A stretch of DNA of 43,134 nt, from the IMG/VR virus record IMGVR_UViG_3300045988_126989; one strand, written 5' to 3'. The notes under the pieces were generated by a model. The model ran no database searches and was not told the origin of the DNA. It was given only the letters and a program-made list of their open reading frames with translations. A program made the position numbers and the translations under genes. Positions 4,980 to 42,989 of this stretch are shown here, piece after piece. The stretch is from a virus. Every line of letters begins with the position of its first letter. Positions within the stretch are counted from its first letter, which is position 1.

Positions 4980-6818
4980 TTAATTATTGCGAATTTCGTT
5001 GTTCCAAGCAACTAACTCAATATTTTCTATTGTTGAATCACTTGTATTTGGTTTAAGTTCAATTTGTCTGCTCACACTATTTCCACAAACAATTGCTTTT
5101 GTTTTAAGTTGGCTTGTACCATAATAAAGCAAACGAATTGTGTTATTTCCATATAAATAGTTATCTTTGATTGAAATAAATGATTTTGCATTTGGTTGAG
5201 AAGTGTTGTGGATAGAAATAGATGCGGTTGTATCTTTACTTCCAACTGTTTCAAATATACAACTTTCAACATTAAATTCCCCGAACATCCCAAGACCAGC
5301 ACCAATACAATTATGTGCACCCCATGCAGTATTTTCTGTATTATCTAGTTTCATTTGAACATTTATATATTTATTTATATAAGGTTTATCAAAAGATGAT
5401 GGATCATCATGTGAACAGTATCTTGCATTTTTAACATCAATAATACCACCATGTAATTCAAAACCATTAATTTCATAATCCTTTGAAGAATACGGACTGT
5501 AAGGAGCAAAGTTGAAAGGTGAGAATAATTCTTTTACATTGGCATTATCACCGCTATAATGAAATTTAATTATTGCATTTGATGACATTATAATTTTAAT
5601 ACCATTACCTAAATACAGACCTCTTCTTTCTGAGCGTTCAAAGTTATTAAAAAAGTTATCGCCATAAATAGCTTTAAATTCTTCTTCAATGTCGTATTCG
5701 CCATCATCTACATATACCATTGAATTCTTATACTTTACTGCTTCAGTGACTACTGCCGAGAATGATTTATCCGTTCTGTTTTTTCCTACATAATACACAT
5801 TTGGAACAGCGGTATTAATTAATTCATTTATTCCTTTTAAATAGTCAATATAGCGATCATATGGATAATATTTATCAACTTGGAAGCCACCGTCAACTAT
5901 CATTGCATAATCAATATATGCTGAATTAAACGCAACTTTAATATATTTAGCATTAGTAGGTACACTGTATAATGTTTCCGTTAATCCTCTCTTGCCTATC
6001 ACATTTTTTCCTTCATCAAATGCAACAATATATGTGTTAAGTGTATTCCATTTCCCAACATTATAGAACCCTAACACAATGCTATTGTGTCCAGATACAT
6101 CAACATAATCACTAGCACAATATTTATTGTTAGGATCATTTACGATATCTCCATTGTCATTAATAGTTTTATTTAATGTAACTGTATCTTTATTGAACAT
6201 GTTAGGACTAATATATTCATACACACCTATACCTTTTTCTAAATAGCCTAAATCTTCCTTTAGTGAATTAACTTGTGATTGCAAATTATCATTTTGCTTA
6301 TTTATCATATTTGATAACTCAGTATAGATTTGTGCAATTCTATCTTCTTCCTCACTACTAGGTGTATAAGATTTAATATAAATTCCATCAGGTGTAATTA
6401 CAGATGCAATTTGTGTAGACCATCTTTGATCAATTACACTTGAACTATTTTTAGTCATAACTGCGCTCATCGCAAAATGTAATACTCCTGAATTTTTCAA
6501 AGCATCAAATGGCACTTTCCATGAAAATTCACAAGTATCATTATTAATTGTTTTGTTAATCGCAATTGACTGGCCTTTAACTCCCCTAGAATCAATCCAA
6601 TTTATATAAACAATTGAATCTTGCATTTTTTGAATATCAGATAACGTGTTTTTGATTCTAAATTTAATCAGTTTAGAATTTCCATCATATTGCACTCCGA
6701 ACAATCTAGATACATTATTAATATTAATAGTATGTGTATCTGTATCAATCGTAAGATATTCATCATCATAATCATAAGCAACCGCATCAAAACTTAGTCT
6801 TGCTTTTAATCCATCCAT
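4980..6818 (-). CDS. Tail fibre / receptor-binding protein (BppU-N-like N-terminus, possible beta-helix C-terminus)
   Basis: 612 aa, last large structural gene. N-terminus ..TIDTDTHTININ..GVQYDGNSKLIKFRI resembles the baseplate-upper-protein N-domain. Otherwise called by position. Confidence 0.55.
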   Translation of the reverse strand: MDGLKARLSFDAVAYDYDDEYLTIDTDTHTININNVSRLFGVQYDGNSKLIKFRIKNTLSDIQKMQDSIVYINWIDSRGVKGQSIAINKTINNDTCEFSWKVPFDALKNSGVLHFAMSAVMTKNSSSVIDQRWSTQIASVITPDGIYIKSYTPSSEEEDRIAQIYTELSNMINKQNDNLQSQVNSLKEDLGYLEKGIGVYEYISPNMFNKDTVTLNKTINDNGDIVNDPNNKYCASDYVDVSGHNSIVLGFYNVGKWNTLNTYIVAFDEGKNVIGKRGLTETLYSVPTNAKYIKVAFNSAYIDYAMIVDGGFQVDKYYPYDRYIDYLKGINELINTAVPNVYYVGKNRTDKSFSAVVTEAVKYKNSMVYVDDGEYDIEEEFKAIYGDNFFNNFERSERRGLYLGNGIKIIMSSNAIIKFHYSGDNANVKELFSPFNFAPYSPYSSKDYEINGFELHGGIIDVKNARYCSHDDPSSFDKPYINKYINVQMKLDNTENTAWGAHNCIGAGLGMFGEFNVESCIFETVGSKDTTASISIHNTSQPNAKSFISIKDNYLYGNNTIRLLYYGTSQLKTKAIVCGNSVSRQIELKPNTSDSTIENIELVAWNNEIRNN

Positions 6819-23179: not shown

Positions 23180-23502
23180 CCTATAAGCATTCCATTTTCA
23201 TCAAATTCAAAAGATGGTTTGCGTTTGGAATGTTCTTCTGCATGGCATAAGTCACACAACGCTTCCAAATTAGAATCACCAAATAGAATGTGTATATCTC
23301 TATAGTTGTCCTGGTCAATGTGTACTTTGTGGTGCACACAAGTAGACCTTGTATAGATTCCTTTTTTTAAACACCTTTCACAAAGCGGATGCGCCTTTCT
23401 ATACGCTTTACTTTTCTTTTCCCAAGCCTTGCTTGAGTAGAATTTTCTAGCATAATTTCTAGCGCCCGTTTTCGTTGCTTCTGAACCATAATATTTTTTC
23501 AT
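23131..23502 (-). CDS. HNH endonuclease associated with cos-type packaging
   Basis: CERCLKKG..VHHKVHI..LCDLCHAEEH (HNH/zinc motifs). Located directly upstream of terS/terL, as in HK97-like cos phages. Confidence 0.85.
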   Translation of the reverse strand: MKKYYGSEATKTGARNYARKFYSSKAWEKKSKAYRKAHPLCERCLKKGIYTRSTCVHHKVHIDQDNYRDIHILFGDSNLEALCDLCHAEEHSKRKPSFEFDENGMLIGCGREEECKKEHGKKE

Positions 23503-23578
23503 ATCGCTACATTCAAAGTTTTAGTTAACAGATTTAAAGGACGACAATATGAACAGTAAACCCTTTGAATGCAGTGAT
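23503..23578 (-). promoter_or_regulatory. 16-bp imperfect inverted repeat abutting the HNH start codon
   Basis: ATCGCTACATTCAAAG (23503-23518) versus CTTTGAATGCAGTGAT (23563-23578), 14/16 complementary. No Shine-Dalgarno precedes the ATG at 23502. Confidence 0.45.
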
Positions 23579-23581
23579 ATG

Positions 23582-23611
23582 AAAAAGACCCGTGTTTCCA
23601 CAGGTCTTTTT
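23582..23611. terminator. Bidirectional rho-independent terminator in the late-operon leader
   Basis: AAAAA-GACCCGTG-tttc-CACAGGTC-TTTTT. 8-bp stem with one mismatch, and A/T runs on both sides. Confidence 0.6.
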
Positions 23612-23689
23612 CAAACGGGCACAATATGAAACAATCCAAGAACTACCTTGTTTGTGTTCTAGAAGATGTTTTCCAATCTTCACAACTAC

Positions 23690-23726
23690 AGAATATCACG
23701 GTTTTTCTTTGTACACTGTACAAAAT
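23690..23726 (-). promoter_or_regulatory. Putative late promoter for the packaging/head/tail operon: same 19-nt box plus -10-like hexamer
   Basis: TTTGTACACTGTACAAAAT (23708-23726) is identical to 1692-1710. After 12 nt on the minus strand comes TATTCT (23695-23690). Confidence 0.5.
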
Positions 23727-23735
23727 GAAGAAATT

Positions 23736-23837
23736 CAGATTTTACCCCCCTCTCGTGCGCGCATGACCGAGTTTTTTTAAACTCCCCACGCCGTTCCCCG
23801 AAACGCAAAAAACTTCCGAAAGATAGGGGGGTATCTG
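23736..23837. repeat. Interrupted 13-bp inverted repeat with C6/G6 runs enclosing a GC-rich 73-nt segment (cos-region or RNA-stem candidate)
   Basis: CAGAT-ttt-ACCCCCCT (23736-23751) pairs with AGGGGGGT-ATCTG (23825-23837). An internal hairpin GAGTTT-tttt-AAACTC is present. Confidence 0.5.
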
Positions 23838-24149
23838 CTGATCTGATCCCAGCCAAGGGCGCTTTCAGGGTTCAAAATTTGGATTATGCAGCTACCACCA
23901 CACCGCACCATTCACGGCTTTAATCATATGACATTCACATATTTATTATTGTGTTGAAACATTTTTCAACACGCATTGTTGAAAGCGTGTTTCATACCAT
24001 AGCCATGACTACATCAATAGAACACGCGCGCACGTTCTTATATATGCAATAACTCTTGCATCACTCCAGTGCATTGCATCATGCGCACCCGTTCCATATG
24101 TTTTTAGCGTGTCGCTTGGCTTCCTTGATGGAGCTCAAGCAAACCACAC

Positions 24150-24173
24150 AAAAAAAGGACGCTCACCACGTCC
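24150..24173 (-). terminator. Short intrinsic terminator on the minus strand
   Basis: GGACG-7nt-CGTCC followed by U7 in minus-strand RNA. The stem is only 5 bp. Confidence 0.4.
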
Positions 24174-24196
24174 ATACATGTATATAATACCGGTCT

Positions 24197-24253
24197 GATA
24201 ACTATATCTTATAAGACCAAAAGCGAACACGCTTAAAAGCCTTATAAATAGGC
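24197..24253. repeat. Copy B of a 57-bp repeated module (copy A at 29094-29150)
   Basis: GATAACTATATcTTATaAGACCAA matches copy A at 22/24. AAAAGCCTtaTAAATAGGC matches at 17/19. Same orientation. Confidence 0.7.
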
Positions 24254-24326
24254 GCTTGCGTGCACGTTTGAGAATACAAAAGCTTTTTGAAAAAATGAGC
24301 ACCGAAAAAATATTATTAATTTTTTA

Positions 24327-24631: not shown

Positions 24632-24823
24632 ATTGTAAGAAAAAAAAGTGGTTCTTTCAATCAAATAGAATACATAAAAGAATTTAATAAAGCCAATTAT
24701 AGAAAATACGAAATCAGAGTGAAAAAAGAAAATATAGACCTTATAAAATGGCTTGATAAACAACCAAATAAAACCGCTTATATAGTAGATTTGATTGAAA
24801 AAGACATGAACAAAAAAAAATAA
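24632..24823 (+). CDS. Small ribbon-helix-helix-like DNA-binding protein with a non-canonical ATT start (63 codons)
   Basis: AGGAGG (24619-24), 7 nt, ATT. Frame open to TAA 24821-23. No ATG/GTG/TTG is available upstream. ..YRKYEIRVKKENIDLIKWLDKQPNKTAYIVDLIEKDM looks like strand-helix-helix. Confidence 0.4.
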   Translation: MVRKKSGSFNQIEYIKEFNKANYRKYEIRVKKENIDLIKWLDKQPNKTAYIVDLIEKDMNKKK

Positions 24824-40368: not shown

Positions 40369-40377
40369 GGGGGGGGG
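40369..40377. repeat. G9 homopolymer in AT-rich intergenic DNA
   Basis: ttttttcGGGGGGGGGtag as read. Sits at the 3' end of an 18-codon ORF starting at 40324. Confidence 0.8.
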
Positions 40378-41891: not shown

Positions 41892-42989
41892 TTACAACAA
41901 CTTATTCATCATATCTACAATGCTCTTGTCTTTTGTATCAAACCAGTGTGCATATGTATTGTGCAATGTTTCAACTGTATCTCCTAAGCGCTTGGCTATA
42001 TCAAAATCTGAAAATCCAGCACCTGCCATGTTATTAATTAGAAATGATGCGTGTGAATGTCTAAAATCATGGATTCTTATTTTAGGCAATCCATCATCTT
42101 TTTCTTTTGCCTTATTATATGCATCATCAAATCTTCTTTGCACTGTCTGAGGTGATATTGGTTTATAGTATCCAAATACAAATTTATCTTTTGTAAAATC
42201 ATCCCATTTAGAACATTCTAGAAACCATTCTCGAAGCATTTTAGACAATGTATTAGGCATTGTAATAGTTCTATAGCTATTGTTTGTTTTTGGCGGTGTA
42301 AGCCATTTATTAGGGTCTTTCTCTTTGTATCTATATGTTTTGTTGATGTCTATCGTTTGCTTCCTAAAATCAATGTCTTTCCATTGTAGGGCCATTGCTT
42401 CACCTTTTCGCAATCCCATATAGAATAAAACAGAATAAAAACATTTCATCATTTGTTCATTTACTTCTTCAATAAACAAATCAAAATCATATTGCTGCCA
42501 TATTGTCATTTCTTCTTTTCTTTCATTCAATCTAAGATCACGTTTTACATATGTCATTGGATTGGTTGGAATGTATTCAGAAGTAACACCAAATTTATAT
42601 AGCTTATTTAAAAAGAAATAGATTCTTGATACATATGCCTTTGAATATTTTTCATCAAATTTGTTGATCAAGTTTTGCATTTGCCTTTTATCTAGAAAAT
42701 CAATATCTTTCATTTCCTTAGAAAGGACATTGTACAAATATTCATCTGATTTTAGTGTTGATTCTTTTACATACTTTTTATTATATTCTTTAAAAGCTTT
42801 ATATAGTCTGTCAAAATTCATGTCTGATGGAAGCATAAAGAAATCTTTCCTGAATTCAACCTCAGCTTTTTGTGCTTCCCATTTAGAATCAAAACCACGC
42901 TTACGATATCGCTTTATACATTTACCATCTTTATATATTTTTCCGGCAAACATATATTTTCCTGTCTTCTTATCTAATTCCACTGCCAT
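41892..42989 (-). CDS. int: Tyrosine integrase with an N-terminal arm-binding-like domain
   Basis: 365 aa. ..LRKGEAMAL.., ..IRIHDFRHSHASFL.., ..GDTVETLHNTYAHW.. Adjacent to the terminal repeat. AAGAGGG RBS. Confidence 0.9.
   Translation of the reverse strand: MAVELDKKTGKYMFAGKIYKDGKCIKRYRKRGFDSKWEAQKAEVEFRKDFFMLPSDMNFDRLYKAFKEYNKKYVKESTLKSDEYLYNVLSKEMKDIDFLDKRQMQNLINKFDEKYSKAYVSRIYFFLNKLYKFGVTSEYIPTNPMTYVKRDLRLNERKEEMTIWQQYDFDLFIEEVNEQMMKCFYSVLFYMGLRKGEAMALQWKDIDFRKQTIDINKTYRYKEKDPNKWLTPPKTNNSYRTITMPNTLSKMLREWFLECSKWDDFTKDKFVFGYYKPISPQTVQRRFDDAYNKAKEKDDGLPKIRIHDFRHSHASFLINNMAGAGFSDFDIAKRLGDTVETLHNTYAHWFDTKDKSIVDMMNKLL

Follow-up and report, generated by a model that had tools for sequence, protein, structure and literature searches.

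A probable HK97-type cos site, late promoter and structured leader upstream of the packaging genes of a human-gut siphophage

The IMG/VR virus record IMGVR_UViG_3300045988_126989 is a stretch of 43,134 nucleotides (nt; the whole stretch analysed is referred to as the window) from a temperate HK97-like siphophage of a human-gut Firmicute, in which the late genes are found on the minus strand. The region under study is the gap between an island of plus-strand genes and the gene for an HNH endonuclease, the first gene of the late operon. This gap is devoid of credible open reading frames (ORFs) and is the junction of both ends of the virion chromosome, together with the control region of the late operon. 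We consider, with good confidence, that it combines an HK97-type cos site with the late promoter of the packaging genes and a structured leader. Rather than a new RNA gene, it is an ordinary phage feature and belongs to the known HK97-like mode of cos packaging, in which an HNH nuclease is combined with a small (TerS) and a large (TerL) terminase. An earlier reading made from the letters of the DNA (below, the sequence-only reading) had offered a cos region, an antitermination leader and a large noncoding RNA (ncRNA) as possible identities of the segment.

The analysis draws on relatives that were retrieved with the HNH protein, i.e., 63 close IMG/VR loci with 82−95% nucleotide identity, 31 further contigs from human-gut metagenomes, and two diverged relatives represented by one contig each, L131 (78% identity in the HNH protein; a contig of a metagenome-assembled genome, MAG) and L064 (58%). 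A scan of metagenomes with the HNH protein of L131 recovered relatives of the main clade only and no more contigs of the diverged lineages, and a blastn search of INPHARED in distant mode with 23400−24700 gave no match, hence no annotated relative. All relatives align without break from HNH to position 24310, where a swappable cassette starts, and 23503−24310 is therefore considered as one conserved unit.

The physical ends of the chromosome become apparent from the ends of assembled contigs (assemblies, not reads). Among the 22 contig ends that lie at most 6 kb upstream of HNH in the relatives, four (L016, L027, L047 and L056) fall at exactly position 23782 and one more at 23778, 4 nt off. 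The four contigs differ in a variable palindrome adjacent to this position and therefore represent distinct strains. In L027 and L047, a TruSeq-type Illumina adapter is joined directly to GTTYAAAAAAAC. The latter contig (146550; 44,713 base pairs (bp), i.e., genome length) has the adapter fused to both its ends, which are 11 nt apart on the joined map: at the left end the adapter is followed by GTTCAAAAAAAC, while the right end reads ...CGGGGAA and then adapter (the sequence at this other end is ...TTTCGGGGAA|AGATCGGAAGAGCG, also given as ...GCGTTTCGGGGAA followed by AGATCGGAAGAGCG). The 11 nt CGGCGTGGGGA are absent from both ends of this contig and present in the window and in ~100 joined copies, which read GGGGAA-CGGCGTGGGGA-GTTTAAAAAAAC. 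In contig 160163 one terminus is the cut left end and the other reads through the joined site, including CGGCGTGGGGA, which shows that both forms were present in the sample from which this contig was obtained.

In library preparation, end-repair by T4 polymerase trims 3′ overhangs and fills in 5′ overhangs. That the contig ends display a gap and not a duplication therefore indicates 11-nt 3′ cohesive ends located at 23783−23793 (cosN; CGGCGTGGGGA on the minus strand and TCCCCACGCCG on the plus strand). Hence the cos region, which had been one suggestion among others, is placed with base precision by public contig ends: the termini appear to be unique and fixed, with a 3′ overhang within the ~9−13 nt that would be expected for HK97-like cos packaging, on indirect evidence from assemblies, with the right end seen in one contig.

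The two cuts fall within a conserved core, GGGGAA|CGGCGTGGGGA|GTTTAAAAAAAC (23771−23799, minus strand), in which an A7 tract occupies +4 to +10 relative to the left-end nick. The 20-mer GGGGAACGGCGTGGGGAGTT occurs once in the window and is found unaltered in ~100 loci, the diversity (pi) of the core is 0.022, and zero chance matches are expected for the 20-nt core, as for the 15-nt palindrome of the late promoter described below. One base is different in L131, while L064 has kept GGAACGGCG...TTAAAAAAAC at the same distance from HNH; in the diverged relatives the core is located ~280−313 nt upstream of HNH. The core is flanked by the interrupted C6/G6 inverted repeat that had been recognized in the sequence-only reading and that is composed of two 17-nt arms with 82% complementarity: the G6 arm (as read on the gene strand) at 23743−23759, with its G run at 23745−23750, 32 nt from the left-end nick, and the C6 arm at 23817−23833, with its C run at 23826−23831, 32 nt from the right-end nick. 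The centre of this repeat, 23788, is also the centre of the overhang, and the repeat is conserved in relatives. A C6 box at a similar distance is found also in L131, L064 and L191. The last of these is a 72-kb viral contig that was the one additional plausible cos site in a degenerate scan for the core (two other matches were false positives in coding sequence); its cos-like core, TACCCCCCTACG...GGGAACGGCGAGTTCCCTTAAAAAAAA, is found at 5800−5890. As an aside, L191 and the phage studied here have no similarity over ~340 nt downstream of the core, and the core motif may be more widely shared than the phage family.

Between the core and the G6 arm, and overlapping with both, a short palindrome (23752−23775, i.e., +8 to +31 from the nick) is composed mostly of alternating purines and pyrimidines. 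It is highly variable (pi 0.168), with 16 sequence variants that belong to three main types, each of which is still palindromic, and by its position it is a candidate for the region contacted by TerS. Alternating purine-pyrimidine tracts as such were rejected as a special feature, since 16 of them with a length of at least 12 nt are found across the window. In the mechanism that we propose, TerS and TerL, together with the adjacently encoded HNH nuclease, would nick the two strands of concatemeric DNA 11 bp apart inside the invariant GGGGAA|CGGCGTGGGGA|GTTTAAAAAAAC to yield 11-nt 3′ overhangs midway between the C6 and G6 boxes, where the assignment of each nick to one of these proteins is presumptive. 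The A7 tract and the small palindrome inside the left end would occupy the position at which TerS binds in HK97.

Transcription of the packaging and structural operon appears to start just inside the left end, from a late promoter predicted at 23690−23726 (minus strand), which consists of the box ATTTTGTACAGTGTACAAA (23726−23708), a 12-nt spacer and the TG-extended −10-like element TATTCT (23695−23690), with a predicted transcription start near 23683. The box contains the perfect palindrome TTGTACAgTGTACAA, a second perfect copy of which is found at 1693−1707, where the identity extends to 19 nt. This second copy is part of another predicted late promoter (1674−1710, minus strand) with the same box, the same 12-nt spacing and a −10-like element TATTAT (1679−1674), located before the holin and endolysin genes. 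It thereby supports the late box at 23726−23690 that had been proposed from the sequence; the identical 19-nt box, at the same 12-nt distance from TATTNT, is duplicated in at least 24 related genomes. In IMG/VR as a whole the box has 105 exact matches, and at least 24 contigs are matched twice; the lysis-type context, with TAT[T/C]AT at the same spacing, is conserved in ~45 loci. A search of the window for the palindrome with up to 3 mismatches gave 10 matches, compared with 2.2 expected, and no shuffle reached ten. The diversity from the G6 run to the leader terminator (23751−23625) is 0.012, compared with 0.044 for HNH and 0.050 for terS.

The lysis copy follows the terminator of the structural operon (1712−1731) and precedes AGGAGG and the ATG of the holin gene; the lysis cassette therefore has its own predicted late promoter and would not be the tail of the structural operon. 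The duplication of box and spacing is the pattern that would be expected of a promoter served by a phage late activator. In phages of Gram-positive bacteria, such activators (the RinA/Ltr family) govern the genes for packaging and lysis through a promoter immediately before terS (PMC3753634). Promoter activity, predicted here from sequence, would depend on an activator and originate ~60−90 bp inside the left end at the combination of the 19-nt box, 12 nt and TATTCT; with the promoter used again before holin and endolysin, one phage factor could switch on packaging, morphogenesis and lysis together. A candidate for this factor is the 155-amino-acid product of 29610−30077, which matches the family phrog_36 ("transcriptional regulator") with an E value of 1.3e-5.

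The predicted transcript begins with a leader of ~180 nt that is nearly invariant and that folds with a z score of −4.96 relative to shuffled sequences. It is composed, in order, of a stem-loop (SL1), a conserved single-stranded segment with ACAAACAAGG, a terminator and a 24-bp hairpin. SL1 (GAAGAU-UGGAAAAC-AUCUUC; 23662−23681, minus strand) is found in minimum-free-energy folds just after the predicted start; at the same position L131 (GUAAAGAA/UUCUUUAC) and L064 (GUAAGAU/AUCUUAC) have a stem-loop of other sequence. The terminator (23580−23613), an intrinsic one of bidirectional shape, is the element that the sequence-only reading had described at 23611−23582; it was confirmed as an inverted repeat with 15-nt arms and A and T runs on the two sides, A5-GACCUGUG-GAAA-CACGGGUC-U5 in the fold. 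A terminator scan missed it, probably as a result of the T run being taken up in the stem. It is located ~70−100 nt from the predicted start, its stem displays a compensatory change in relatives (GACC/GGUC to GAUC/GAUC), and unrelated terminators occupy the same leader position in L131 and L064.

The last element of the leader, a long hairpin at 23495−23586 (minus strand), is composed of two 24-nt arms (23495−23518 and 23563−23586) with 92% complementarity and a variable loop of 44 nt. It corresponds to the 16-bp inverted repeat that had been reported to abut the HNH start codon; the repeat is present, but its arms are longer, and it contains the ATG instead of abutting it. The 3′ arm holds the AUG of HNH (23502−23500) and the first two Lys codons, while the 5′ arm starts with the U tract of the terminator. 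As had also been stated, the HNH start has no Shine-Dalgarno sequence before the AUG. The arms are almost free of variation (pi 0.000−0.005; loop, 0.088) among the close relatives, and in L131 and L064 they are fully rewritten, yet still complementary. The possibility of a promoter inside the hairpin loop was rejected, as the loop of L064 is only ~21 nt long. Together, the terminator and the hairpin would keep the nuclease and terminase genes off, or at a low level, unless late transcription is strong or modified, and the hairpin would act in the RNA, through occlusion of translation and/or through processing by RNase III and stabilization.

Read-through of the leader terminator may be constitutive and partial, or it may depend on a factor. 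The latter case includes a dedicated antitermination device, which we consider possible but rather unlikely and which, as it concerns only the leader step, is compatible with the cos site. The device would be either a protein that is loaded at the late promoter as in the lambda Q/tR′ system, or a cis-acting RNA of the put-like or EAR-like type (SL1 and ACAAACAAGG) that makes the polymerase resistant to the terminator at 23580−23613 and to later terminators; without it, only an RNA of ~100 nt would be made. The layout of a late promoter followed by a terminator, to which the sequence-only reading had drawn attention, does recur in the two diverged lineages (L131 and L064), i.e., the order of promoter, ~100 nt and terminator is kept in three lineages with unrelated sequence. 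The idea is also consistent with the near-invariance of the ~125 nt from the G6 box to the terminator, the diversity of which is below that of coding genes, with the retained position of SL1 with compensatory sequence, and with the benefit that a late operon of ~22 kb would derive from processive antitermination. However, no Q-like or other antiterminator protein was recognized among the neighbouring genes scanned with the Pfam, PHROG and NCBIfam libraries (a factor of a new kind being possible), the leader has no Rfam match, and covariation statistics would need more than three lineages. In its lysis copy, the promoter is found right after an operon-ending terminator and lacks one downstream, which fits ordinary termination better than a terminator-resistant polymerase, and a leaky safety terminator explains the layout equally well.

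A more far-reaching proposal, which we regard as quite unlikely, is that the ~100-nt RNA (SL1, ACAAACAAGG and terminator) is a cis-acting antitermination or riboregulatory leader of a kind undescribed in Firmicute phages, either put-like or served by an unrecognized Q-like factor. Combined with a hairpin cleaved by RNase III, which would render the HNH mRNA leaderless and devoid of a Shine-Dalgarno sequence, it would form a two-step safety lock on the nuclease that cuts cos.

Alternatively, the 24-bp inverted repeat and the others between cos and HNH could act in DNA, as terminase or accessory sites in a cosB-like array, such that their extreme conservation would reflect recognition in packaging rather than control of transcription or translation. 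The repeats extend from +37 to +290 from the nick, where cosB is found in lambda, and the functional cos fragment of HK97 is several hundred bp long, from −312 to +472 (PMC11331095). In the window clade and in L131 the energies of the hairpin are similar on both strands, i.e., without strand bias, as this alternative would have it. In L064, in contrast, the hairpin has an energy of −27.0 kcal/mol on the gene strand versus −14.4 kcal/mol on the complement and includes 7 G·U pairs, which is expected only for RNA; the far greater stability on the mRNA strand therefore suggests selection on the RNA. Furthermore, the arms change completely between lineages while TerS and HNH remain 58−78% identical, one arm includes the start codon and the other the U tract of the terminator, which ties the hairpin to gene expression, and the box recurs at the lysis cassette, which plays no part in packaging. 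We therefore consider a function as DNA sites unlikely and retain the structured leader.

A number of observations weigh against the assignment of cos site, promoter and leader. The right end, and with it the length and polarity of the overhang, rests on one contig (146550). Adapter remnants are found also at unrelated contig ends of the same dataset (L151 and L170); because an adapter alone is no proof, the argument for a cos site is the coincidence of positions. The majority of related contigs continue through the site, as prophages or circular forms. TerS and HNH were compared with the types of palindrome at 23752−23775, and no co-variation was found; one and the same TerS occurs with type B and with type C, two of the three main types, and the TerS site is therefore assigned by position only. 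The late promoter has no recognizable −35 element and is not called by a sigma-70 scan, and the assignment of the activator is weak, as the product of 29610−30077 scores 19.8 bits with DUF1492, below the Pfam cut-off of 21.5, and has no match in NCBIfam. The terminator that follows the promoter makes sense only if it is leaky or overridden. In L064 the hairpin is found upstream of a normal Shine-Dalgarno sequence and AUG, and occlusion of the start codon would therefore be specific to the window clade and L131.

The first of these points bear on a further alternative, in which the accumulation of contig ends is an artefact of assembly or library preparation at a GC- and homopolymer-rich spot, while the true site is elsewhere or packaging is by the headful mechanism. 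In addition to the adapter remnants at unrelated ends, it could be argued that only 5 of ~60 related contigs end here and that scans of IMG/VR for the left and right adapter-junction patterns yielded only contig 146550 again, plus unrelated matches. An artefact would not, however, be expected to select the same nucleotide in four strains of different sequence, or to place both ends of a genome-length contig of 44.7 kb here with precisely the kind of gap expected from trimming of a 3′ overhang; a second breakpoint would fall within 15 nt by chance with a probability of <1e-3. No 20-mer of the region is more conserved than that of the site, on which the flanking inverted repeat is centred, and HNH, a P27-type TerS and an HK97-type TerL constitute the gene set of cos packagers (PMC11331095). 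Taken together, this makes an artefact very unlikely, and the site at 23783−23793 is retained as the cos site. Adapter fragments as such remain on several contig ends of IMG/VR dataset 3300045988 (L027:1−36, L047:1−21, L104:1−14, L151:1−12 and L170:1−7), which is an issue of data quality, yet one that can be used to detect physical DNA termini.

On the other side of the overhang, the noncoding right-end block (23794−24310) is GC-rich and consists of islands of conserved motifs in variable spacers, up to the boundary of the plus-strand cassette. Conservation is lower here than anywhere else in the region (pi 0.14−0.17, with many indels and 30% gap columns), and the block folds with z scores of about −2.7 to −2.8 on either strand. 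The islands are two gene-strand terminators, a GAAC(RY)nGTTC tract, three TTTCAACA 8-mers, GGATCAGATCAGCA and the C6 box. The minus-strand terminator that had been noted near 24173−24150 was called independently by the scan at 24157−24173 (GGACG-UGGUGAG-CGUCC followed by U7), and its stem displays compensatory changes (pair variants UG, UA and GC); this terminator probably protects cos and the late operon against transcription that reads in from upstream. A second, weaker terminator-like hairpin is found at 24221−24234 (minus strand) by the scan only. What had been described as overlapping alternative hairpins (GTGTTGAA/TTCAACAC) is present as an element but is in fact an array of three 8-mers in alternating orientation, TTTCAACA / TGTTGAAA / TTTCAACA, which start at 23952, 23964 and 23977 (array, 23952−23984); the 8-mers are near-invariant while their 4−5-nt spacers vary, and the array is a candidate binding site for a protein. 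The palindromic, alternating purine-pyrimidine tract GAAC(GY)nGTTC (24020−24037) has invariant flanks and a variable core. It overlaps with one arm of a GC-rich inverted repeat that had been given as 9 bp and that is found as 12 nt with 92% complementarity (23754−23765 and 24023−24034). Its arms do not co-vary, and long-range pairing of the two tracts was rejected, as the distal one is constant while the proximal one changes in relatives. In the proposed mechanism, this block would be the noncoding right end of the chromosome, its terminators would stop read-through into cos, and its short repeat motifs are plausible sites for terminase or accessory proteins; that the islands are accessory sites of the cos region is speculation.

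The same block was the basis for the suggestion of a large ncRNA, according to which 23794−24180 would encode a structured RNA of the GOLLD, ROOL or HEARO type, or of an unknown class. The suggestion has some appeal, since ~370 nt of GC-rich, ORF-free DNA in an AT-rich phage fold somewhat better than shuffled sequences (z = −2.8), but it was not upheld. A search of the whole window against Rfam at gathering thresholds gave no match, a search of 23300−24800 at E values up to 10 gave only chance-level miRNA and sRNA matches, and a search for tRNA and tmRNA found none. The z scores are equal on both strands, which indicates palindromes in DNA, and the variability of the block is the highest of the region. 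The covariation term of RNAalifold over 49 relatives is −1.5 kcal/mol, where 2 of 55 pairs are compensatory, most clearly in the stem of the terminator at 24173−24157. Moreover, no promoter is predicted on either strand, and on the gene strand a terminator is located at the 5′ side. We consider a large ncRNA highly improbable.

The observation from which these considerations started, an ORF-free segment that is locally rich in G+C, is itself solid. The longest stretch of the window that no ORF of at least 70 amino acids covers is 23503−24616 (1114 nt), within the 23503−24631 that had been described as lacking a credible ORF, and the segment 23740−24180 is, to within 7 nt, the most GC-rich 441-nt stretch of the window (45.6% compared with 32.7% overall; 53.7% at 23740−23860). 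None of the ORFs of 24−62 amino acids inside 23503−24310 is kept intact across 53 distinct relatives: a 26-amino-acid ORF is broken in most of them, and a 46-amino-acid ORF is shifted by a 2-nt indel such that it stays open in two different frames. A hidden protein-coding gene or recent pseudogene is hardly credible, because the several ORFs of 33−62 amino acids that could be taken for one are intact in no more than a minority of these 53 relatives, save the one that switches reading frame, and the segment has no homology to phage DNA in INPHARED.

The cassette that adjoins the segment on the plus strand differs between relatives. A plus-strand promoter of perfect consensus (TTGACA-16-TATAAT, 24327−24354) is found within a 17-nt palindrome and faces a near-consensus minus-strand promoter (24614−24586) across a leader of ~260 nt. 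This leader holds a 22-nt direct repeat and is closed by a perfect 14-nt inverted repeat (24386−24399 and 24591−24604). The layout of 24310−24631 looks like that of an antisense-controlled accessory module, and a 36-amino-acid ORF inside it is not conserved among relatives. Next on the plus strand is an ORF of 63 amino acids (in the segment 24620−24823), which has an apparent ATT start at 24632, 7 nt after GGAGG (24620−24624), and which is shortened to 34 amino acids in the automatic ORF list. The protein is conserved, with conservative substitutions, in 27 distinct relatives, and ATT is kept in all the variant translations listed (18 of the 27); a family search gave nothing except a weak match to phrog_14312.

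The remainder of the window is organized as follows. A single long late operon on the minus strand (~22 kb) encodes HNH, TerS, TerL, portal, S78 protease, a capsid protein of the HK97 fold and the tail genes. The left arm begins with the HNH endonuclease gene (23131−23502; PF01844, phrog_144), which shares 49 nt with that for TerS of the P27 / Terminase_4 family (22787−23179; PF05119, phrog_361, TIGR01558), followed by that for TerL (21132−22790; PF03354, PF20441), all on the minus strand. The portal (PF04860), S78 prohead protease (PF04586) and capsid (PF05065) are encoded downstream of the terminase genes, while the r1t-type holin (1428−1652) and an Amidase_2/SH3_5 endolysin (266−1333) are found behind their own copy of the predicted late promoter. 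The plus-strand gene island spans 24632−27014, the early genes occupy ~27.6−38.5 kb on the minus strand, and the integrase gene is at 41892−42989. The overlap of the HNH and terS frames (23131−23179) is unusually long for neighbouring phage genes, and the start of terS may be further downstream, as crude ORF extraction gave 124 amino acids in relatives compared with 130 here. A second, unrelated gene of HNH / endonuclease VII-like type (31991−32413, minus strand; PF01844, phrog_2118) is found in the early region. The second-longest ORF-free stretch (39908−40606, 699 nt) is found in the neighbourhood of the lysogeny module; within it, a homopolymer run (C/G) of ~9 nt at 40369−40377 contains the motif TACCCCCC, which is present also beside cos.

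The data fix the true ends and the orientation of the genome, as well as its packaging strategy, for a family of human-gut prophages that is abundant and uncultivated; ~100 related contigs were obtained, some of which lie within bacterial contigs of 87−141 kb. This information is useful for annotation of genome starts, for prediction of transduction (cos phages do not usually perform generalized transduction) and for recognition of satellites that might carry the same cos core. It also illustrates a method in which physical termini are recognized, in the absence of reads, from public assemblies with contigs that end in fused adapter, and the duplicated promoter box provides a starting point for the study of how late genes are controlled in these phages. 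The current understanding of phage packaging is unchanged; the one point of broader interest is the passage of transcription and translation across the leader terminator and the start-codon hairpin. As regards the host, close relatives (L194−L222) are integrated in long human-gut contigs (e.g., OPDD01000010.1, 141 kb, and OJKO01000009.1, 131 kb), which could reveal it; the MAG bin labels, Solobacterium sp. and Waltera intestinalis, disagree at the family level, and bin labels are unreliable for phage contigs.

A comparison with known systems places the phage with respect to both packaging and late control. The cos site of lambda (cosQ-cosN-cosB) is similarly nicked within a partly symmetric sequence with accessory sites on both sides, and the lambda pR′-qut-tR′ region likewise harbors a terminator ~100−200 nt after the late promoter, such that a short RNA is made without read-through. 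Lambda differs in its 5′ overhangs of 12 nt, the lack of an HNH protein and the location of pR′ far from cos. A terminator shortly after the late promoter is found here also, whereas no Q homologue or other protein of the Q family, and no defined antiterminator RNA, was found in the libraries scanned, and the promoter looks activator-dependent rather than constitutive. The predicted late control resembles that by RinA/Ltr (phi11, phiSLT, phi12 and DUF1492/LtrB phages), where the promoter is found just upstream of the packaging genes and near cos, a single activator serves morphogenesis and lysis, and terminators insulate the promoter from upstream transcription (PMC3753634, PMC3152322). Those phages use one promoter for the whole late cluster, whereas here two copies of the box would serve packaging and lysis, the assignment of the activator (phrog_36; DUF1492 below cut-off) is weak, and an extra terminator and a long hairpin are found downstream of the promoter.

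With regard to the nuclease, HNH genes commonly adjoin cos and terminase genes (PMC3592412), and in the Lactococcus Skunavirus sk1 (HrdP) and the S. aureus phages phi12 and phiSLT an HNH protein is needed for efficient cos packaging (PMC12967558, PMC5052747). These are, as here, Firmicute siphophages with a small HNH gene that adjoins terS and terL; their cos sequence is unrelated and their host lineage different (human-gut Bacillota in the present case, according to MAG labels only). The cos site has a counterpart in that of HK97, which has a 3′ overhang of 10 nt and a TerS site with an A-tract 15−29 bp inward of the cut, and at which cleavage is stimulated by the HNH protein gp74 (PMC11331095). 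The likeness extends to the length of the 3′ cohesive end, about one helical turn (10 nt in HK97 versus 11 nt here), to an HNH nuclease encoded next to the terminase genes, to the HK97-type TerL, portal, S78 protease and capsid, and to the A-tract-containing TerS site near the left end of HK97, which has its positional equivalent here in the A7 tract and palindrome (+4 to +31). As compared here from sequence alone, the two cos sites have no sequence similarity, and TerS is of the P27 / Terminase_4 family in the phage studied here.

The gene order is different as well. In phages gamma and phi105 the HNH gene is the last-numbered gene and terS the first (PMC3592412, Table 2). As HNH and terS are thus at opposite ends of the records, cos would be located between them. 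The gene for gp74 of HK97 is likewise the last gene of the right arm. In the present phage, cos is not between a right-end HNH gene and a left-end terS but 280 bp upstream of HNH, the leading gene of the left arm, which overlaps with terS. The HNH gene is nevertheless directly adjacent to terS and terL, with HK97-type portal, protease and capsid genes downstream, and its place in the left arm is a variant of gene order that is not essential to the mechanism.

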